A DNA stretch of 64,000 nt from Halorutilales archaeon Cl-col2-1 (GTDB lineage Archaea > Halobacteriota > Halobacteria > Halobacteriales > Afararchaeaceae), in assembly GCA_041891055.1 (NCBI GenBank), contig CP169074.1:320001-384000 (forward strand), read 5' to 3'. This document shows, in pieces, positions 15,018 through 54,425 of the stretch. Position 1 is the first letter of the stretch; each line of letters starts with the position of its first letter. The notes beneath the pieces were generated by a model that was given only the letters and a program-made list of their open reading frames with translations, searched no databases and was not told the DNA's origin. A program made the translations under genes and the position numbers.

Positions 15018-15468
15018 TTGACATCCTCACCCGCCTGAAGTCGGGTGAATCCCACATTGGGAATTTAAGGTTTCCAACCAACACAACCTTGTCAGGAGTT
15101 TCCCCCATTCACGGTTATATCGGCTGAAGGCTGTGCCAAACAGCCGTTACTCCTATCCTCTCGGACTCGGAGTTATCTCTGAACTTCGTTCAGAGGTTAA
15201 CGAAGCTTTGCTTCGTGATATCTTTCTACCTACCTTCTGTGGGGTTTTCACAACACACTTTTTAATGCATTTTCACAACCCTTCCGTATATTACCTCGTT
15301 ACTTTGGGCGGGTAAACCGCCTACGTAGGTTGATTGACCCATACAAAGATTCGTTGTGGTACTACTAAACTTTTACTGAAATTCCGGTATAGTCACCGAA
15401 ATAGTAAGTTGAGTACTTCGACGGATTCATCCCGCACCTAAAGGTGCGGGTATTCTCCTGTGCTATCT
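15018..15468 (-). mobile_element. Non-autonomous IS200/IS605-family (IS1341/tnpB-derived) element
   Basis: Subterminal hairpins at both ends (CCCGCACCTAAAGGTGCGGG ~15431-15450; CACCCGCCTGAAGTCGGGTG ~15028-15047). Minus-strand right end ...GAGGATGTCAA; left end follows TTAT. Retains tnpB 3' remnants (RKITPSP, DRSNGCLAQP); no full ORF. Confidence 0.8.
15174..15223. repeat. 45-nt twin-hairpin insertion with TATCT direct repeats
   Basis: TATCT (15174-15178, 15219-15223) flank CTCTGAAC-TTC-GTTCAGAG and ACGAAGC-TTT-GCTTCGT. Confidence 0.85.
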
Positions 15469-42781: not shown

Positions 42782-43070
42782 TTGAGCGAGGACTCACAGA
42801 CCCAGAAAATCTACTGCGAAGACTGCAGCCTACATATCGACGCCGAGATCTGGGAGACCCACCTCAGAAACAGACACCCCAGAGAATACGATCCCGCCAC
42901 GTTCGGAAATCTCTAATTTCCGAGCCATCAAAATCATAGATTTTGAGACGTTCGACCTCAACGACTACCTAGACGTCGACGATAGTAGCGGAGGCGGCAA
43001 AGAAAGTGTCGACAAGTCACGCGTCCTCGAACCTTTGAGACGGCGGTCGAGTACTACCACGACCAACTCG
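42782..43070 (+). pseudogene. Small C2H2-zinc-finger ORF truncated by a twin-hairpin insertion
   Basis: AGGAGGTGA ribosome-binding site then TTG. YCEDCSLHIDAEIWETHLRNRH. The current stop (42914-42916) lies inside the insertion; removing it restores ...PATFDLNDYLDVDD. Confidence 0.6.
42899..42954. repeat. 49-nt twin-hairpin insertion with ACGTTCG direct repeats
   Basis: ACGTTCG at 42899-42905 and 42948-42954 flank CGGAAATC-TCT-AATTTCCG and TCAAAATC-ATA-GATTTTGA, with a GAGCCA-type linker. Confidence 0.88.
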
Positions 43071-45763: not shown

Positions 45764-48385
45764 GTGTTCGACGTTATTATCCACTCGCTTGAGCATAGTT
45801 ATATTCTTATTTTTGGACTAGCCGCCGTTGTTTGTATTGGGGGAGTGATGGGTGTTCAAACATTTGACCACCCGGACATACGTCGCAGCCTTAGTGGGCT
45901 ACTCCTCCTCAACGGCGTCTGGTCACTCGCAACTGCGTTTCAGCTTTTCGTGACGACCTACGCGATGAAAAGTTTCCTTCATATTGTTGGACTCATTGCG
46001 GGAATCTCGACTGTCTTTGCTTGGCTCTCATTTGCCTCGGCTTACTCAGGTCGTCATTACCACCGAAAGCGTTCTCTTCAGGTAGTCAGTCTGGTATTTC
46101 TAGGCTTTATTTGTCTCCTGAAGCTGACAAATCCGCTCCACGGCTTGTACTTCAGTACGTCAGCTGCTACTGAACCATTCAGTTACCTGAAGATAAATTA
46201 TGGCCCAATACACTGGTTTGTAACCGGATTCGCCTACACAGCGTCAGCAGTTGGGTTTCTCTGGCTATTTGAGTCGTTCGAACGGAGTCTATCCAAGGAT
46301 AAATCGAGACCGACTACTCTCTACGCCCTCGTACTCGTGACTGGGCTTCCAGTAATCCCTTATGTTCTTTCGACATACTCAAATCTACTTCTCAGAATAA
46401 ATTATGAGCCACTCGGGGTCGCTATCTTCGCAGTCGGGGTTGTCTTCTACGCACGTTCGGAGTTTGTGAACCATAGTTCACCCGAGAAGGCCGCTCTCGC
46501 CAAGAACTTCTCGGAGGCGGGTCTAGTTCTCGACAAGTTCGGGGTAGTTATCAATTATAATGACCGAGCAGCCAGAGTTCTGAACACCCCGGGGATACCC
46601 CGTGAACCCTTAGAGGAGATCGACACAGAACTTGCTTCACTTGCGGCTGGGGAGACTAGACACATCAACTACGAGGTTGAAGGGAGAGAACGTGTCTACG
46701 AAGCCCGGCGTTCCCAAGTCACAGAGAGCCTCATCGCTGACGAAGTCATCATTCTGAAAGACATAACGAGGGCGACTCGTCTTGAACAGCTAGTCCGGTT
46801 CTACCAAGATATTAACGAAGCTCTCATCGAGGTGACTGATCCCTGGGATATAATACAGGATATCCCTGAGAGGTTTGCTCAGATTGATGTGTATGATCTT
46901 GTCTGGCTGTATCCGGTTCCTACTGAGGATCAGATCCAACCAGCTACAAGTAACATTGTAAGCAACCAAGAATTAATTAGCGGGGAGGGTACTGTACCTG
47001 GGCTCGTCGCGGGAAAGGCGGACGAGTACGCTACGTGGGCATCTTCGAATGCGGGATTAGAAGAGCCCGTAACTGCCGCAGCACGTCAGAAGCAGAAACA
47101 ACACGTTGCTGTCAGCTCCGATGAGTCTAACACCGAATCTGAATGGAGGCACAGAGCGGGCGAGTATGGTATAACTGACACTTTCGCGGTTCCGATGACC
47201 TTCAGTAATCAGCAGACGTATATCCTCGGGGTATTCAGTACCGCACCCGACGGATTTGACTCAGCTGAAAGAAGGGTGATTGAAGAGATAAGTAAGGGAA
47301 TACCTCAAGCTATCGAGTCGATAGAGACCCACAAGGAGGCGTTACAGTACAAGGAAGCAATCAGACAAGCGGGAGCAGCAATCAGTATAACGGACAATGA
47401 CGGAGTGATCCGGTATGTGAACCCCGCATTCGAGGATCTCACAGGTTATTCAGAGGAGGAAGCAGTTGGTTCCACTCACCAAATTCTAAAATCGGGCGAG
47501 ATGGATGAGGAGCATTACGAGAGCCTGTGGAACACGGTTCTGTCAGGAGATATATTTGAGGAACAGATCATCAATAAAACGAAAGACGGAGACAGGTACA
47601 TCGCCCGACAAACTATATCACCAGTTACTGACGAGGATGGCGATCCAGAGGCGTTCGTGGCTATTCAGCTTGATATCACCGACAAGATTTTGCGCGAACA
47701 ACGTCTCTCTGTACTCAACAGAGTACTGCGCCACAATCTTCGGACAGCCGTCAACGTTATCACCGGAAACACAACGCTACTCAAAGAACGGGTTCAAGAT
47801 GTCATCGGATCGGAAGAACTCCCTCCTGAGATCGAGAGTTCTGTCGAAACCATCCGGAGTAAGGCTGAAGAGATGTCTGATCATGCAGAGACAGCTCGCG
47901 AGATAGAGGAGAAGATCTCGAAGAGTCAGACGGATCAGGTTCGAGTACCTATTGAAAAAGTAGCTCAGAAAGCGGAGAAGGCTGCGGAGTCATTCGATGC
48001 GAATCACTCGGTTGAAGTTAGTGATAATATAGACGAGTATCAAGTCGATGTTGAGACAGTACAAATAATTGAGGAGCTGGTCGAAAACGCGGTGGTTCAC
48101 AATGATAGACCCCTATCCGAGATCAAAGTTGAGATCGAGCTTTCGAGAGCCGACAACGATCTAGTTCTCACTGTCAAGGACAACGGTCCGGGGCTTTCCG
48201 ACCAAGAGCTCGTAGTCGTGGAGGAAGGTACTGAAGAATCTCTTCAGCACAGCAGTGGCTTAGGTCTGTGGATGGTCAACTGGCTAGCGATATCTCTTGG
48301 CGGATCGATTAGTGCTACTACGAGCGGAGACGGAACTACAGTTAGGGTAGTAATTCCTCTTCGAGGGGAGTCAACTCCCTCGTAG
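45764..48385 (+). CDS. Histidine kinase with N-terminal 7TM domain, GAF-like and PAS domains
   Basis: 7TM region (TNPLHGLYF), PAS (YVNPAFEDLTGYS), LRHNLRT, ELVENAVVH, DNGPG, GLGLWMV. Confidence 0.9.
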   Translation: MFDVIIHSLEHSYILIFGLAAVVCIGGVMGVQTFDHPDIRRSLSGLLLLNGVWSLATAFQLFVTTYAMKSFLHIVGLIAGISTVFAWLSFASAYSGRHYHRKRSLQVVSLVFLGFICLLKLTNPLHGLYFSTSAATEPFSYLKINYGPIHWFVTGFAYTASAVGFLWLFESFERSLSKDKSRPTTLYALVLVTGLPVIPYVLSTYSNLLLRINYEPLGVAIFAVGVVFYARSEFVNHSSPEKAALAKNFSEAGLVLDKFGVVINYNDRAARVLNTPGIPREPLEEIDTELASLAAGETRHINYEVEGRERVYEARRSQVTESLIADEVIILKDITRATRLEQLVRFYQDINEALIEVTDPWDIIQDIPERFAQIDVYDLVWLYPVPTEDQIQPATSNIVSNQELISGEGTVPGLVAGKADEYATWASSNAGLEEPVTAAARQKQKQHVAVSSDESNTESEWRHRAGEYGITDTFAVPMTFSNQQTYILGVFSTAPDGFDSAERRVIEEISKGIPQAIESIETHKEALQYKEAIRQAGAAISITDNDGVIRYVNPAFEDLTGYSEEEAVGSTHQILKSGEMDEEHYESLWNTVLSGDIFEEQIINKTKDGDRYIARQTISPVTDEDGDPEAFVAIQLDITDKILREQRLSVLNRVLRHNLRTAVNVITGNTTLLKERVQDVIGSEELPPEIESSVETIRSKAEEMSDHAETAREIEEKISKSQTDQVRVPIEKVAQKAEKAAESFDANHSVEVSDNIDEYQVDVETVQIIEELVENAVVHNDRPLSEIKVEIELSRADNDLVLTVKDNGPGLSDQELVVVEEGTEESLQHSSGLGLWMVNWLAISLGGSISATTSGDGTTVRVVIPLRGESTPS

Positions 48386-48601
48386 AAATCGATTCATAGA
48401 AAAGCACGGGAAGTAGGGCAGGGTGCTAAAAATAGTCGAACTTGATAACGTTATCTTCCAAATGCTGATAGAGTTAAAGTTACTATACTCTCAATCCGGT
48501 CTCAACACCGAGTTGAGATATCTCCTTCCCATGGAATACCTCAGGTATACGCAAGTCTACACAAGCTAACTAACATTTCTGAGGGTTTCATAGAACTGTT
48601 C

Positions 48602-49259
48602 GGCGTTGGTGAATCGCCATACGAAGCTTGATTTACTGTTTTACGGCATGTTTGATGTTGTAGACAGAGCAGATCAGGATGAGTTCACGAAACTCTCTGT
48701 ACCAGGCACGCTCACGCACGGCTTCACGAAGCACAGCTTCGTTAGCTGAAAATCTTCGATTTTAAGCTGTGCCGAGCGTGCGCTTGATGTTTGAGAAGAC
48801 GGTTTCAGACATGGATCTTTGACCATAGAGAGACCCATCGATTCTGGTGTCGCAAATCTGAGATTTGCGTACATCCAAAAATCAGAGATTTTTGAATACG
48901 TTATGCGCCTGATCGATGGGTCGGAACTCACGGTGTTTGGTGAGTGGTGCTTATCCGTAGACAGTGGAGAGAAACGATGGCGTAATCCGCGAAGCCGCCA
49001 CCCTGCTCTGGGGTGGCGGCTTCGCTCCGACCACCGACATCATGAACTCCGTTCATGAGCCTCAAAGCTCCGCTTTGAGACAGCGTTTTTAGCTAATGTC
49101 ACGACTCTATCAGTGATGTGTTGTGAATCTTTGATTCACATACGTTGGAACGCAAGCGTTCCAAAACGGGAGATTTTGGATATGTCATCGAAAACTTCCC
49201 GCTTCATCTCCTTTGCATTAGTGGCTTAATCCAACGCAGTCTAGTGATTCACCAAAACC
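48602..49259 (-). mobile_element. Degenerate IS5-family (ISH1-like) element with central deletion and four hairpin insertions
   Basis: IRs GGCGTTGGTGAATC and GATTCACCAAAACC. After removing the insertions the minus strand reads SKISRF-TDRVVTLAKNAV-GGRSEAATPEQGGGFADYAIVSLHCLRI [deletion] PLTKHREFRPIDQAHNA-RIDGSLYGQRSMSETVFSNIKRTLGTA-VRERAWYREFRELILICSVYNIKHAVKQ*. Confidence 0.88.
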
Positions 49260-49304
49260 AATTGAGGAAAGTAAGATTGGTCTAGAAGATCAAAACTGGA
49301 AGGA

Positions 49305-50234
49305 TTAGGATGACGAAGAAGAGACGTTTTCGATCTCTAACTCACCTTCCATTCCGTTCTTCTCTATCTCGATCTCAAACTCCTCTTCAGGTACCTGAAC
49401 AGTGATTCTCCCGGTTTCGTTCGTTCTACCAACATCTTCGTCGTTCACACTCACGCTAGTGTTTGTAACAGCCGAGCCGTTTACTGTAGCTGTGACTGTC
49501 ACATTTTCGCCAGCCGTGACATTTCCTTCAACATTAATATTGACTCTCTGTTGACTGTCTCCATCCTCGTCGTCTTTGTCGTCTTTGTCGCCTTCATCCC
49601 TCACTCCGCGTTCGTCTTCTTCTTCATCTTCCTCATGTTCATCATCTTCTCTATCTACCTGATTCATGGGGACATCAGTACCTGACTCACTGACTACTGG
49701 TTTGAGTATGTACTTGCCGCTCTTTCCAGCTTTGTGTACTGAGATATCGAACACGAAGTCAATGGACTCGTTGTTGCCTACTGTGAAGTTCTTGTTGACG
49801 TGTAGCTTTTCGCTCGGGAGCTTGACGTTGACCTGTTCTCCATTGTCAAGTGTGGCGTTAATCTCATCAACGTACACGAATACCTTACTGTAGGTGCCGT
49901 TGGGGACGTCGTACTCGTCGATCATGGTTGCGTTCTCCCCCTTTAGCTTGGTCAGGTCGACAGTCACATTGTCGACCTCGTGAGTCTCCCAGTTAGACTG
50001 ATTCGACGACTCGTTTACGTTTACGCGATTAAATCCGACTTCAGTAACTGTGACATTTAGGTGCTCGAAGTCGTCAATTGCGTTCGGCTGATCACTTATG
50101 TATAAGTTGACTGTGCCAAGATTGGTGTCTTCTCCGTCATCTGTTCCAGCATCTCCTCCATTCATGCCGCCGGTACAGCCGGCGAGCGCTACTAAGCCTA
50201 CGACCGCTACTATACCGAGTGTTTTCGTTCTCAT
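49305..50234 (-). CDS. DUF4382-like lipoprotein
   Basis: LAGC lipobox, YISDQPNAIDDFEHLNVTV, VDLTKL, VKLPSEKL, FVFDISV..GKYILKP; acidic linker and extra C-terminal domain. Confidence 0.8.
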   Translation of the reverse strand: MRTKTLGIVAVVGLVALAGCTGGMNGGDAGTDDGEDTNLGTVNLYISDQPNAIDDFEHLNVTVTEVGFNRVNVNESSNQSNWETHEVDNVTVDLTKLKGENATMIDEYDVPNGTYSKVFVYVDEINATLDNGEQVNVKLPSEKLHVNKNFTVGNNESIDFVFDISVHKAGKSGKYILKPVVSESGTDVPMNQVDREDDEHEEDEEEDERGVRDEGDKDDKDDEDGDSQQRVNINVEGNVTAGENVTVTATVNGSAVTNTSVSVNDEDVGRTNETGRITVQVPEEEFEIEIEKNGMEGELEIENVSSSSS

Positions 50235-50470
50235 TTTCTATTGCTCCGGTTCCTCCTTAGTACCCGTGTGTACTTTAGTACCCGTAGAAGTCCGACTAAA
50301 TCCAACTGTCTGTGATTAGTTTTCAGTAGTTTTCACTCGTTTTTATCGTCCGGGAAACGTACAAACGACTGAAAAAGACTGCAAGAGGGTCAAAAAGAAA
50401 CAGAAAGGCGTGAAAACCACTCGGAGTTTCTTCTGCTTTTATTGCCGGTGGGGGTGTACATAGGACTACG

Positions 50471-51223
50471 ATGAAACAGAAAATAATAGCGACCTCGGCT
50501 TTAGTCATACTCCTCATGTCCGTAATGACACTCCCGGCGGTGTCCGCGCAGGAAAACAGTACTGACTCAGAAGTAAGGGAAAACTCAGGACTTTCGTTAG
50601 GACATCAGATCCAGGTAGTCGTCGAGTCACAGAGAAGTAAGGTCGTCGGAGACATCGAAAGAGAGGTGTTCAAACACTCGGTTGAGAACGCGAGCAATAA
50701 GTCCAGAGTAGTCAACCAAAAGGTCGAAGAAATACATAAGAGAACCACGGAAGCAGAACACGAACGCCAGAGACTTCTGGAACAGCTCCACAACGGATCT
50801 ATACAGCCACAGGAGTTCGCCGTCAAGATGTCAGATATAAATAATCAGATATCAGTGGCAGCGAGGGATATGAGAAAAGTGAACGAGACTATACAGAAGA
50901 AGGATATCAACAACGTAAGCCGAGAAGAGATGAATAGTTTCGAGAACAAAACACCGGTGAGTCCCGGGGTTCTTAGAACTGCGAACCAGGCACTTGATCT
51001 TGCACTAAATGCCGTTAACATGAGTGGTCAAGAGATTGCCCAAAAGGCAAGAAATATAGGGGGACAGAACGCTCCGGAAGATCTCATAACTGACAACTCG
51101 GGTAAGCCTAATAATGTATCCAGAGGAGTTCCTTCTGATGAAAAGCAGCCTAGTAAAGTTCAGGATCAGACCCAGGGAATGAGTGAGGCGGGTGAACTAC
51201 CCAGAGGTCAAGTTAAGCGATAG
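50471..51223 (+). CDS. Secreted hypothetical protein (helical)
   Basis: Signal peptide MKQKII...PAVSA; divergent from the DUF4382-like gene. Confidence 0.7.
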   Translation: MKQKIIATSALVILLMSVMTLPAVSAQENSTDSEVRENSGLSLGHQIQVVVESQRSKVVGDIEREVFKHSVENASNKSRVVNQKVEEIHKRTTEAEHERQRLLEQLHNGSIQPQEFAVKMSDINNQISVAARDMRKVNETIQKKDINNVSREEMNSFENKTPVSPGVLRTANQALDLALNAVNMSGQEIAQKARNIGGQNAPEDLITDNSGKPNNVSRGVPSDEKQPSKVQDQTQGMSEAGELPRGQVKR

Positions 51224-51369
51224 GTCTCTGGTGGCACTCTGCGACCATTTGCCGTTGTTTTTCCAGTTCGAAGAACGATGTTTTTTCTGGAAGAGTTTCC
51301 GTTGCTCCCGTTCAACTTGCAGTAGCGCGGAGTCCCCCTTGAGGGAGAAGGCTTAGCGCCTGCTATCAG

Positions 51370-52011
51370 CTAAACGAACTTTATTCCGAGATCCTTGAGA
51401 CCGTTCTTTATGCCTATATTTATAAGGAGGGGTGTTACGCTCTCTATCTGTGCGGCGTTTCCGAGGCTTCCGGCGTCGAGTGCGTTGACGCCTTCCACCG
51501 ACTCGACGACCTCGACTGCGGTCTGTTTCGCGTCTGCCTCCCCGAAGACGGCTATGTCGACTCCGAGTTCGGCGTCAGGGTCGGCGAGACGTCCCGCGGC
51601 TATGTTGTGGAAAGCACCCGCGACGCCGACCGAGTCAGGAAGACCGTCACGCACGATCTGTGCCGCGCTTCCCTCTTCGGGTCTGTCGTACTTGAAGCCG
51701 TCCTCGTCACGTTTCATGCTCGTGACGGGGGATATGACTGTCTTTTCTTCGTCTGCGACCTCGGCGACCTGATCCACGACGTCAGGGAGGGAGCCGAAAG
51801 GAACCGCGAGGACGACGACCTCGGCTTTAGCTGCGTCGGCGTTCGATCCGCTCTTGACTTCGACTCCCGTCCTCTCGGAGTACTCGTCGGCGGCTTCTGA
51901 TGCTCTGTCCTCATCCCTGCTTCCGACTACGACTTCGTGCCCAGCCTGAGCGAGACGCACTGAGAGACCGCCTCCGAAGTCACCCGTGCCTCCTATTATT
52001 CCTATTCTCAT
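51370..52011 (-). CDS. npdG: NADPH-dependent F420 reductase
   Basis: IIGGTGDFGGGL, VGSR, VLAVP, GSAA, AFHNIAA, IESVTPLLINI. Confidence 0.88.
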   Translation of the reverse strand: MRIGIIGGTGDFGGGLSVRLAQAGHEVVVGSRDEDRASEAADEYSERTGVEVKSGSNADAAKAEVVVLAVPFGSLPDVVDQVAEVADEEKTVISPVTSMKRDEDGFKYDRPEEGSAAQIVRDGLPDSVGVAGAFHNIAAGRLADPDAELGVDIAVFGEADAKQTAVEVVESVEGVNALDAGSLGNAAQIESVTPLLINIGIKNGLKDLGIKFV

Positions 52012-52120
52012 ACTTACTTAGTATGACGCCGTGGGAGTCGTTATAGATTGCGTTATACAGACGCAAGGCGGAGTCAAAGCACAATTCTTATACTTGTACC
52101 GCGATACTGTTAGAATGCGC

Positions 52121-52192
<72 letters not shown>

Positions 52193-52195
<3 letters not shown>

Positions 52196-52388
52196 AATTT
52201 CTCTGAAATTTGCACGGAACAGAATTGTAGATTCTGTGACGTTCGCTAATCTCTGATTAGCGTGCAAGCAAATCTTCGATTTGCGAACGTATGCAAATCA
52301 AAGATTTGCGAGCCTGCGAGATCAGAGATCTCGGAACGTTCGGAAATCTTCGATTTCCGAGCCAGCGAGAACGGAGTTCTCGGAACGG
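52193..52388. repeat. Array of eight triloop hairpins, 23-25 nt period
   Basis: Loop centres at ~52203, 52228, 52253, 52276, 52301, 52325, 52350 and 52374; stems differ and linkers alternate. Confidence 0.92.
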
Positions 52389-52484
52389 GAGAAAAACTCG
52401 TTCCCTCCTTGTGGGATTTTTCTATTTCTTCAGAGTCTTCCACTTTCGACGTATTTATCCAGGAACTGTGGTTACTTCCAATAG

Positions 52485-54425
52485 ATGTCTGACTCTGACG
52501 AGCATGGAGGATTCGAAAGTATACGTGAGGAGGTCAAGGGCAATCCTATCGTGAGATTGCTTGGCTACACCCGTCCCTACAAACTACGTCTGATCACTGG
52601 GGTATTGATGTCGTTCTGTACCCGTCTCGCACGCCTCGCACCCCCCGTAATCATAGCCACAGCGATAGATAGGATCATCTTCCAGCGTGGCGAACCGGGT
52701 TTACTTGCTCGGATAGGTTTAGTTCCCTCTGACACCGTCACTAATCTAAATGCCCGGGCTGAGCTGCTGGAAACCTTGGTAATCATAGCTGTTGTTGCCT
52801 ATCTCGTCCGGTCAGTGACACGGTTTCTTTCGCGGTATCTCATCCAGTCAGCCGCACAGAAGATACAACGCGACCTACGGAACGACACGTATGACCATCT
52901 CCAGCATCTTTCGATGAGCTTCTTCACTAACCATCAGACAGGCGGTATGATGTCGATTCTTAACAGTGACATCAACCGACTCGAACAGTTCCTCAACACC
53001 GAGTTCCGCCAGTTCCTCCGTGTGATAGCTATGGTCGGCGGGATTAGCCTAATCCTGTGGTACTATTCGCCTACTCTAGCCCTAATTGCTCTCGCACCTG
53101 TTCCTGTAGTAGGAGTTGCGAGCGGTGGATTCCTCCGTTGGATCGAGCCTCGGTACCAGTCCATCCGAGAGACTGTCGCACGTTTGAACACCCGTTTGGA
53201 GAATAACCTGGGCGGCGTTGCAGTCGTGAAAGCCTTCAACCGTTATGATTTCGAACGTGCCCGTGTAGAGAACCAGAGCCAGAGATACCACGACGAGAAG
53301 GTCGGTGCACTACGTATACGACGTGCTTTCTTCGCCGGTCTACGTTTATTAACGGGAGTGGTATTTGTCGTGGTGCTATACGTAGCTGGCAAGGACTTTA
53401 TAGCTACGCCTACGGGCAAAGAGCCGATAATCTCTGCAGGTGCCTTTGCGGCTTTCTTCATGCTGTTGAGACGTCTCTACTCGCCAATGCGACGAGTGGG
53501 GAAATCAGCTAATAAATATCAGCTTGCGAAATCGAGTGCAGAGCGAGTGTTCGGACTACTTGCAACTCAACCCAGTATGACTAGCCCGTCCGATCCGTAT
53601 CAACCACAGGAGATCGATGGCGACGTCGTGTTTGATTCTGTGTCTTTCGGGTATAACGACAGCAAAAACGAGAAAGTCATCGAGGATCTATCCTTAGAAG
53701 TGCCTGCAGGCACCACCATCGGTCTCGTAGGGGAAAGCGGAGCCGGAAAATCGACCCTGCTTAAACTCATACCGAGGCTCTATGACGTGGATTCCGGATC
53801 GGTCAAAGTTGATGGAACTGATGTACGTGAGTACGGTGTAGAGGCACTACGTGATAAGATAGCTGTAGTCGAACAGAATCCATATCTGTTCTCCGGAACG
53901 GTGGCAGAAAACATAGCCTATGGCAACAGAGAAATCCTCCGAGCCGAGAGTAGCCAGACTGCCACGGACAAAGAGGACGAAGATGAGGTTCGAAAACGGA
54001 TAACCGACGCAGCCCAGGCTGCTGAAGCCCACGGTTTCATACGCGATCTTCCGGACGGATATGACACACAGATAGGCGAACGAGGGGTTAAGCTCTCGGG
54101 AGGACAGCGTCAGCGGGTCGCAATCGCTAGAGCACTACTCAACGACCCCGATATAATAATATTCGACGAGGCGACGAGTGATGTCGATACTGAGACGGAG
54201 GATCTCATACAGCAGAGCCTCGAACGTCTCATTCACGACAGAACTGCTTTCATCATTGCTCACCGTCTTGCTACAACCAAGAATGCCGACCGGATAATTG
54301 TATTAGAGGACGGCGAAATAGTTGAATCGGGCACGCATAAAGAACTCGTACAGACCGAAGGAGTCTACGCATCGTTGTGGAACGCCCAAGCGAATATGAA
54401 TGAACCCATCGGATCGATAGGATAG
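52485..54425 (+). CDS. ABC exporter, fused permease/ATPase (MsbA-like)
   Basis: TM domain plus [37 protein letters not shown]. Confidence 0.93.
   Translation: MSDSDEHGGFESIREEVKGNPIVRLLGYTRPYKLRLITGVLMSFCTRLARLAPPVIIATAIDRIIFQRGEPGLLARIGLVPSDTVTNLNARAELLETLVIIAVVAYLVRSVTRFLSRYLIQSAAQKIQRDLRNDTYDHLQHLSMSFFTNHQTGGMMSILNSDINRLEQFLNTEFRQFLRVIAMVGGISLILWYYSPTLALIALAPVPVVGVASGGFLRWIEPRYQSIRETVARLNTRLENNLGGVAVVKAFNRYDFERARVENQSQRYHDEKVGALRIRRAFFAGLRLLTGVVFVVVLYVAGKDFIATPTGKEPIISAGAFAAFFMLLRRLYSPMRRVGKSANKYQLAKSSAERVFGLLATQPSMTSPSDPYQPQEIDGDVVFDSVSFGYNDSKNEKVIEDLSLEVPAGTTIGLVGESGAGKSTLLKLIPRLYDVDSGSVKVDGTDVREYGVEALRDKIAVVEQNPYLFSGTVAENIAYGNREILRAESSQTATDKEDEDEVRKRITDAAQAAEAHGFIRDLPDGYDTQIGERGVKLSGGQRQRVAIARALLNDPDIIIFDEATSDVDTETEDLIQQSLERLIHDRTAFIIAHRLATTKNADRIIVLEDGEIVESGTHKELVQTEGVYASLWNAQANMNEPIGSIG

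Follow-up and report, generated by a model that had tools for sequence, protein, structure and literature searches.

The 64,000-nt stretch of the genome of Halorutilales archaeon Cl-col2-1 analysed here, hereafter the window (C1:320001-384000 of genome G000, which comprises 2.06 Mb in four contigs and is 99.5% complete), contains a dead insertion sequence (IS) of the IS5 family, which is interrupted by four inserts that each fold into two adjacent hairpins. These inserts, ins1 to ins4, are probably copies of a family of very small (43-51 nt) mobile elements, which lack a transposase and are mobilised in trans. Members of the family are polymorphic between paralogues, between sister species and among environmental relatives. 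Structure-specific mobilisation in trans, with insertion at CG in or beside hairpins, is the most likely mechanism.

Four inserts in one IS5 lineage

The junctions of the four inserts were defined by aligning the window element with its six paralogues in the same genome and in particular with the insert-free copy C1:304555-305493 (Table 1). An earlier note, made from the letters of the window alone, had placed four twin hairpins within 1-3 nt of these positions; the offsets arise because short junction repeats make the boundaries ambiguous. Its further particulars held as well. The inserts make up 187 of the 658 nt of the element (45 + 51 + 43 + 48), their eight stems are all distinct, and their removal restores the transposase frame, as shown by the single 283-aa open frame of the insert-free copy. 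Folded as single-stranded DNA, ins1, ins2, ins3 and ins4 each form two hairpins, at -12.2, -13.2, -13.0 and -14.0 kcal/mol (z of -3.7, -5.7, -5.0 and -4.8, respectively), and none of 200 shuffles per insert matched the native fold. Two intergenic control pieces, which the note had named as hairpin-free, fold with z of 0.1 and 0.9.

Table 1. The IS5 element of the window and its features (window positions), with the paralogous copies used for the insert history (contig positions)
Feature	Position	Strand	Remark
IS5-family insertion sequence, dead deletion derivative, 658 bp	48602..49259	-	92-95% identity to five other copies; transposase remnants only; all four inserts, 464 nt of gene gone
Left terminal inverted repeat of IS5	48602..48617	+	start of all copies
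ins1, twin hairpin, 45 nt	48721..48765	.	GC repeat, boundary ambiguous by 2 nt
ins2, twin hairpin, 51 nt	48851..48901	.	(C/T)GT repeat, boundary ambiguous by 2-3 nt
Internal-deletion junction, 464 nt of transposase gene gone relative to full-length copies	48948..48953	.	matching pieces 464 nt apart in C1:1299291-1300400
Native 15-bp perfect palindrome of IS5, not an insert	48989..49025	.	found in insert-free copy as well
ins3, twin hairpin, 43 nt	49040..49082	.	ACA repeat at junction
ins4, twin hairpin, 48 nt	49119..49166	.	boundaries from insert-free copy
Right terminal inverted repeat of IS5	49244..49259	-	alignment with paralogues
Intact copy	C1:304555-305493		no inserts
5′ fragment	C1:1293817-1294064		ins2 present, ins1 absent
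Copy on second contig	C2:71430-72501		ins1, ins2 and ins4; no ins3
Full-length copy	C1:1299291-1300400		all four inserts
Copy without middle of gene	C1:1015996-1016674		all four inserts; middle of gene gone

The paralogues carry 0, 1, 3 or 4 inserts (0, 1, 3, 4, 4 and 4 in the presence/absence matrix) and therefore record four successive events in one full-length lineage. The first was ins2, which is absent from the intact copy only and is the oldest because it is present even in the 5′ fragment. It was followed by ins1 and ins4; ins1 is carried by five copies, being absent from the intact copy and the 5′ fragment, and ins4 is absent from the intact copy. The youngest is ins3, because it is missing from C2:71430-72501 as well as from the intact copy. 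All four inserts of the window copy are shared with C1:1015996-1016674 and C1:1299291-1300400. The idea that one 658-bp element was hit four times is thus right in that one IS lineage took four inserts, but the window copy itself was not the target. The inserts are independent, as had been proposed: they are different twin-hairpin units, and their presence and absence among the copies reveal separate insertion events. The earlier note had given the sharing of all four by one amplified lineage as a finding that would count against it. This is half the case: three copies do carry all four, yet the states with 0, 1 and 3 inserts attest to separate events.

One stop codon each, contributed by ins1 and by ins2 and seen in the transposase frame of the two full-length filled copies, broke the transposase. 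The dead element was still copied and later lost 464 nt, which gave rise to the window copy. The transposase for this copying would have been supplied in trans by the intact insert-free copy. In a further deletion, C2:68491-68768, the second ins1 hairpin is fused to the first ins4 hairpin, and the two have an AATCTTYGATT core in common. The loops of ins4 are inverted between copies, from TTT/AA in the window to GAA/TT in the other copies (e.g., in C2:72371-72413), while the stems are unchanged; the difference resembles a small hairpin-loop inversion.

The identity of the host element rests on the intact insert-free paralogue, whose 283-aa protein scores 250.5 bits against NF033579, the model for IS5 transposases (cut-off 140), and 77.4 bits against PF01609. 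The DDE transposase that assigns an element to the IS5 family is thus found in this paralogue, and remnants only are left in the window copy. The intact copy has 16-nt inverted ends, which match at 14 of 16 positions (counted by eye), and is flanked by the 8-bp target duplication TATAATAC; no target duplication is visible at the window copy. The 15-bp palindrome next to ins3 is not an insert, because the insert-free copy carries it too. The inverted ends of the window copy contain GGTGAATC, and the 7-mer GTGAATC of these ends is also an arm of ins4 and of a very common hairpin of the twin-hairpin family (CGTGAATC/TCGTGAATC), which may be a coincidence.

A genome-wide family of twin-hairpin units

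A scan of the genome for perfect hairpins (stem of at least 7 bp, loop of 1-5 nt), in which two or more adjacent hairpins were taken as a cluster, identified 118 clusters: 85 pairs, 11 triples, 13 quadruples and larger arrays of up to nine hairpins. Cluster lengths fall at about 44, 93, 140 and 190 nt, i.e., at multiples of one unit. Contig C1 contains 106 clusters, compared with 3, 9, 5, 6 and 6 in five dinucleotide-type shuffles, and the family is therefore far above chance.

The unit consists of two perfect 7-11-bp hairpins with 3-nt loops, separated by a linker of 2-6 nt. The layout of the main subfamily is CG/T-(TCGNNAATC nnn GATTNNCGA)-GCC(A)-(second hairpin)-GA-CG, where the slash marks the position after the first CG, while other subfamilies have GC, GTAC/TAC (ins2 and ins4 being similar) or TGTGCA as linkers. 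The loops are almost exclusively R-N-A or its complement T-N-Y, with TTC (46), GAA (44), AAA (33), TCC (31), GGA (30), TTT (25), TCT (24), AGA (19), TAC (16) and GTA (14) as counted. The GNA triloop closed by a C-G pair is an especially stable DNA triloop. Loop polarity follows the linker: with GCC-type linkers, a T-N-Y loop in the 5′ hairpin and an R-N-A loop in the 3′ hairpin were found in 20 pairs and the reverse in 3, whereas with ACG-type linkers the same polarity was found in 2 pairs and the reverse in 14. According to this rule, the unit appears identical from both strands.

The family is modular. Its 186 adjacent hairpin pairs draw on 128 distinct stems, and stem TCGGAAATC alone is paired with 12 different partners. 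One unit occurs with all 43 of 43 nt identical at two unrelated loci, C1:78756 and C1:915039. In the window, the twin hairpin at 15177-15216 (CTCTGAAC / ACGAAGC) is identical to one within a TnpB open reading frame (ORF) at C1:464703-464742, and has the ACGAAGC hairpin and the linker in common with ins1.

Modularity of this kind could also be explained if the hairpin pairs were not mobile at all and were made in place when fragile palindromes are repaired through template switching or snap-back synthesis. The high proportion of unique combinations, the inverted loops of ins4 and the use of native palindromes as targets would agree with such an origin. However, no insert arm derives from the flanking sequence, and the same stems, linkers and flanks (CGT...GCC...GACG) are met again elsewhere in the genome and in other genera. 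Together with the identical 43-nt units at unrelated loci and the loop polarity that is kept within each subfamily, this makes synthesis in place very improbable.

Mobility of the family is instead documented by its empty sites. Comparison of the clusters with paralogous sequences provided 29 filled/empty rows at 17 empty sites, in which the insertions comprise one pair (40-51 nt) or two pairs and, once, three hairpins. A single hairpin was rejected as the mobile unit: 296 solitary hairpins (stems of at least 8 bp) gave no single-hairpin insertion, and both filled/empty pairs recovered from them proved to be twins. Usually the insert ends with the same 2-4 nt as the left flank; among these repeats, CG clearly predominates. 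The repeat is GC at ins1 and CA or ACA at ins3, as also at a related unit within TnpB elements; the junctions of ins2 and ins4 fit a CG repeat if the left copy has changed to TG. This pattern is compatible with a 2-bp duplication or with an IS605-like logic.

Recent movement is indicated by the identical 43-nt units at unrelated loci and by differences between genomes. The M24 peptidase gene of a sister species (G001; 96% identical) is without a 48-nt insert that is present in G000, while in the tRNA array of the window G001 has one more 48-nt unit, which is bounded by a 12-nt repeat including the tRNA tail. In addition, metagenome contigs with an identity of about 96% to G000 (runs X2 and X3 of one study, possibly from the same organism as G001) are without the hairpins at three places within 19.9 kb and have 3-5 other letters instead. 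Another canonical GCCA-type twin lies at 42903-42946 of the window, just past the 3′ end of an ORF on the minus strand, itself grouped with a family of sensor-kinase-like paralogues, and the corresponding paralogous empty site is found at C1:1671850-1671891.

After landing, the hairpins accumulate uncompensated point changes, as seen among the IS5 copies and between the tRNA arrays of G000 and G001. Because this decay is uncompensated, perfect stems mark young copies and not a local function.

The family is unevenly distributed among relatives. An AATC-cored pattern was found 30 times in G000, 25 times in G001 and 0-3 times in 29 other genomes of the order; within the class it occurs in 14 of 201 good genomes, and the 12 outside the genus have 1-4 each. 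A reversed control pattern was found 0 times in every genome. Matches to the pattern across the genomes of all species, about 280 of which are expected by chance, were not used for the distribution; among the matches listed, only repeated ones in a few haloarchaeal records looked real. A covariance model of the unit was built from 40 sequences with the structure set by hand; as these sequences had been selected for perfect stems, the covariation is circular and was not used as evidence. It has 129 matches in G000 and, at E of at most 1e-5, at least one match in 37 of 150 genomes and 28 of 57 genera, with 1-5 matches per genome outside the genus when the best 37 candidates per genome were scored. 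Beyond this genus, the four matches with the best scores comprise three from three different genera, all of the same GCCA unit at one position of a TnpB 3′ region, and a fourth inside an intact short-chain dehydrogenase ORF of another genus. A further relative, G011, has units in TnpB ORFs and in an IS end hairpin. The family is read as old and sparse in the class, travelling with IS200/IS605 elements and expanded in this genus.

Target sites, tolerance and a putative mobilising enzyme

Mobile DNA, taken as repeated DNA plus TnpB elements with the hairpins masked, covers 154.5 kb and holds 71 of the 118 clusters (4.6 per 10 kb), compared with 28 in 191 kb of unique intergenic DNA (1.5 per 10 kb) and 19 in 1,719 kb of long ORFs (0.11 per 10 kb). 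The preferential insertion into IS DNA that the earlier note had proposed is therefore supported by the 71 clusters in 7.5% of the genome, but tempered by a density only about threefold that of unique intergenic DNA, paralogous duplicates included. Among the mobile DNA, TnpB elements stand out: 44 of the 118 clusters are within 500 bp of a TnpB ORF (29 mapped ORFs; 33 TnpB domain matches), where they are located in the 3′ region encoding the guide RNA, in the end hairpins of the element or inside the ORF itself. Most TnpB ORFs that bear inserts are still open, at 360-470 aa. TnpB is the sole recurrent family among the neighbours of the clusters (24 of 214 adjacent ORFs), and no other gene recurs among these 214.

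Insertions in coding genes are tolerated as additional peptide. Six ORFs with a family match are open across a unit, encoding SAM synthetase, a PolB intein, a phosphodiesterase, an M24 peptidase, an integrase and ThiN, and all the coding-gene insertions seen are in frame, free of stops and read as 16-18 extra residues. In SAM synthetase, the twin at C1:44172-44218 adds 18 residues in both G000 and G001, which are absent in all four of the four other families aligned. The unit of the family-B DNA polymerase gene (C1:645164-645208) is in the intein region, and the 1672-aa ORF is open.

Hairpin arrays are also found beside genes of translation. Four class II aminoacyl-tRNA synthetase genes have arrays (C1:246235, 1509327, 1615263 and 1634088). 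The distance downstream of the gene is about 30-100 nt in three cases and about 480 nt in the fourth, and the arrays are read as tolerated 3′ sites. In the window, a tRNA at 52121-52195 (Rfam, 53.7 bits) is followed by eight different hairpins up to 52382, the first of which overlaps the 3′ end of the tRNA. Part of this array (52204-52352) has a sub-threshold Rfam match to Clostridiales-1 (23 bits against a gathering score of 48), which probably reflects only the tandem-hairpin shape. No match to the array was found in a plasmid collection searched in distant mode.

The location of many units in the guide-RNA region of TnpB, at the same position in three genera, and their tolerance by essential genes raise the question of whether they act as RNA, either as spliced-out mini-introns or as modules within the guide (omega) RNA of TnpB. 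This is highly unlikely. All the housekeeping copies keep the frame (6 of 6 with a family match, and the dehydrogenase), which is needed for translation and not for splicing; this count is biased, since broken genes would be classed as intergenic, and the one same-strand pair of flanking ORFs scanned, at 1 of the 28 intergenic clusters, proved to be two separate genes. An archaeal bulge-helix-bulge intron was rejected by inspection, as the ends give only a 3-bp outer helix and no bulge-helix-bulge. The IS5 transposase is left broken by its inserts, and in the window region 48000-53000, which contains the inserts and the tRNA array, nothing other than the tRNA scored above the Rfam threshold.

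A different view of the bias towards IS is that a host mechanism plants hairpin pairs in IS DNA in order to silence it, which the earlier note had offered as the alternative to parasitism of IS elements. The sole intact transposase copy of the IS5 family is indeed the insert-free one, ins1 and ins2 carry stops, mobile DNA holds 71 of the 118 clusters, and the inserts provide homology for deletions such as C2:68491-68768 between the ins1 and ins4 hairpins. However, units are also found in frame in SAM synthetase, the M24 peptidase, ThiN, the phosphodiesterase and the integrase, as well as after tRNA and aminoacyl-tRNA synthetase genes; most TnpB ORFs with nearby inserts are open, no non-transposon gene recurs beside the clusters and the excess over unique intergenic DNA is only about threefold. 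A dedicated host silencing system is not supported, because units also occur in intergenic DNA and housekeeping genes, lack any linked host gene and leave most of the TnpB ORFs open; it is given very little credence here, while the other half of the proposal, parasites piling up in parasites, is supported.

The target sites themselves point to another account. The insert-free IS5 copy has seven native inverted repeats, and the four target sites are in, or at most 14 nt from, four of them, whereas six control stretches of equal length contain 1-6 weaker ones. The target of ins1 is 3 nt off the centre of a native 17-nt inverted repeat; that of ins2 is the loop centre of a native hairpin with 11-bp perfect outer arms, whose empty site folds at -17.6 kcal/mol; that of ins3 is 14 nt from the foot of the native 15-bp palindrome; and that of ins4 is within the right arm of a native 16-nt inverted repeat. 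Across the genome, folding is more stable at the 17 empty sites than at random sites (means of -8.97 and -6.9 kcal/mol; Mann-Whitney p of 0.047 and 0.026), and 5 of the 17 are beyond the 5% tail of control folding. Units are also inserted in the end hairpins of IS605 elements and in the linkers of other units, forming nested arrays. Because the four IS5 target sites are in or beside native inverted repeats, the bias towards IS is probably better accounted for by insertion that seeks hairpins, combined with tolerance, than by a silencing system. The bias would then combine a preference for hairpin sites, in which IS elements are rich, tolerance in selfish DNA and hitch-hiking with IS copies.

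The mechanism suggested by these features is that a structure-specific enzyme would act in trans on folded hairpins, in single-stranded or cruciform DNA, and would insert units at CG in or beside pre-existing hairpins. Because insertion would favour such hairpins, units would pile up in IS elements, in the end hairpins of IS200/IS605 elements, in arrays of their own kind and at the 3′ end of tRNA, while purifying selection would remove most insertions elsewhere.

G000 contains one Y1 (HUH) transposase gene, about 30 TnpB genes and few IS4/IS5 transposases; neither a serine recombinase nor a transposase of the IS630-type DDE_3 family, which could have been the source of a 2-bp junction repeat, was found in this genome. 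The single Y1 TnpA is the leading but weak candidate for the mobilising enzyme, with roughly one chance in three. A TnpA-like enzyme that reads hairpins and works in trans on single strands in folded form is favoured because of the triloop type, the lack of long inverted ends and the association with IS200/IS605. The region of the Y1 gene (C1:979038-979650, gene at 979038-979397) adjoins an IS end hairpin (CCCCGCCC...GGGCGGGG) whose loop, 50 nt downstream of the gene, holds six hairpins, i.e., three nested units. The 211-nt IS end of this locus is found twice more without the gene. Unit orientation provided no usable evidence on lagging-strand insertion: the GCC-type units of C1 are 13 forward and 16 reverse, and their runs do not follow the cumulative GC skew.

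The same TnpA could act in another way if the twins were terminal-only remnants of IS200/IS605 elements, a left-end hairpin next to a right-end hairpin. They would then be minimal palindrome-associated transposable elements (PATEs) moved by Y1 TnpA through single-stranded DNA. IS608-type ends need a guide sequence 5′ of the hairpin, for which the twins have no space 5′ of the first hairpin. Resident IS605 elements have GC-rich end hairpins with loops of 2-6 nt, whereas the twins are AT-cored, and loop polarity is dyad-symmetric. Only CG, and no conserved target of 4-5 nt, is found, and the arrays near TnpA are inside the IS end hairpin, hence guests and not the end itself. This origin is therefore unlikely, even though the twins are built of hairpins, have no long terminal inverted repeats, are tightly associated with TnpB elements and include the six-hairpin array 50 nt downstream of the one genomic TnpA. 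Terminal-only PATEs of 52 bp, possibly mobile, are described in part of the haloarchaeal literature (PMC3119063).

Several observations weigh against a family of mobile units moved in trans by such an enzyme. The junctions are not uniform, with direct repeats from 1 to 5 or more nt, and in the three inter-strain comparisons 3-5 target letters were replaced and not duplicated. Precise excision may have produced the "empty" paralogue copies. Of 50 unit pairs at least 95% identical, only 2 have unrelated flanks; most units are therefore unique combinations of modules, which simple copy-and-paste does not explain. The association with inverted repeats is modest, since 3 of the 4 IS5 sites are inside repeats that cover 26% of the IS (binomial p of about 0.06). 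The mobilising enzyme was not identified by these analyses, and the presence of TnpA does not track abundance, as AATC-type units are missing from 12 relatives that possess TnpA. The resident IS605 elements end in GC-rich hairpins that are unlike the twins, and dyad-symmetric loops agree more readily with a dimer that engages both strands than with an IS200/IS605 TnpA, which recognises its hairpins on the same strand.

A more radical reading, which is tentative and rather doubtful, is that the twins are a new kind of archaeal mobile element recognised by shape and not by sequence, of which a dyad-symmetric pair is cut out and pasted into other extruded hairpins by an enzyme that has so far had no known role in transposition. 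Any two adjacent hairpins of a nested array could then become a new unit. If true, recognition by shape would explain the 128 stems, the shared modules and the two opposite loop polarities of GCC- and ACG-/GTAC-linked units. It would also account for the self-nesting of arrays and, as a by-product, for the inactivation of IS elements.

Relation to known elements and significance

No description of 43-51-nt twin-hairpin elements in archaea was found in full-text literature searches. Among the nearest parallels is SMR-A, the small mobile repeats of Haloquadratum walsbyi (HqIRS42/43/55; Dyall-Smith et al. 2011), which is described in the main text of that paper as about 110 bp long with prominent inverted terminal repeats and families homogeneous in sequence, and as inserting within near-terminal palindromes of IS605-type elements and PATEs by an enigmatic mobilisation (PMC3119063). 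Judged by this description, both are transposase-free, have ends unrelated to transposons, cause no regular target duplication and reach many copies. Both also target IS605 palindromes, as reflected here by the insertions in IS605 end hairpins and the 44 of 118 clusters near TnpB. However, the units described here have 43-51 nt, two unrelated hairpins, 3-nt complementary ends (CGT/ACG) and 128 stems, unlike SMR-A as described there. Coding-gene insertions, as found here, are not mentioned for SMR-A in the main-text passages (PMC3119063).

PATEs are characterised in the same passages by IS605-like palindromes, a 4-6-nt targeting sequence and no inverted terminal repeats (PMC3119063). On this account the twins resemble them in being hairpin-based, without inverted terminal repeats and associated with IS200/IS605, but differ from them in that the twin hairpins are unlike the ends of resident IS605 elements and CG is the sole recurrent feature of the target.

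The double-hairpin elements (DHEs) of fungal mitochondrial DNA (Paquin et al. 2000) are, as far as they are described in later papers, GC-rich and present in 1-14 copies per genome (PMC10085805, PMC2800124). As in those accounts, the unit is two adjacent hairpins, small and putatively mobile, found in intergenic DNA and in genes (rRNA genes in the case of DHEs). Mobility is inferred from presence/absence polymorphism in both; DHEs insert without flanking duplication and by a mechanism that is not known. The units described here differ from these accounts of DHEs in being chromosomal and archaeal, in forming more than 100 clusters with modular stems and in preferring the hairpins of other mobile elements, and homology between the two is not to be expected.

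Further parallels are found in bacteria. REP, BIME and REPIN sequences are short palindromes, often paired or clustered and mostly extragenic 3′ of genes, and are thought to be moved by the single-copy Y1 transposase RAYT. REPs share one sequence per genome and the halves of a REPIN are inverted copies, whereas here the hairpins are unrelated and the sole Y1 gene is in an IS with TnpB. Rickettsia palindromic elements (RPEs) are 100-150 bp long, conserved in sequence and inserted in frame in coding genes, where they are tolerated as extra peptide. The twins are likewise palindromic selfish DNA found in frame in protein-coding genes, but RPEs are longer, bacterial and conserved in sequence. A miniature inverted-repeat transposable element was rejected, as only CGT...ACG is complementary at the ends and the junction repeats are 1-5 nt compared with the 8 bp of IS5.

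At 43-51 nt, these units are among the smallest mobile units with exact and repeatedly documented junctions. They reveal mobile elements targeting mobile elements at single-nucleotide resolution, with four successive hits that killed an IS5 transposase. The rule suggested by these data, that hairpins seek hairpins, could explain how haloarchaeal small mobile repeats choose IS605 palindromes, a puzzle of long standing, and the modular diversity of the family, which conserves shape, calls for an enzyme that reads structure. The in-frame insertions in housekeeping genes, which parallel those of RPEs in bacteria, are a source of protein loops and of annotation errors, and the units in the guide-RNA regions of many TnpB genes are relevant to the mining of archaeal TnpB.

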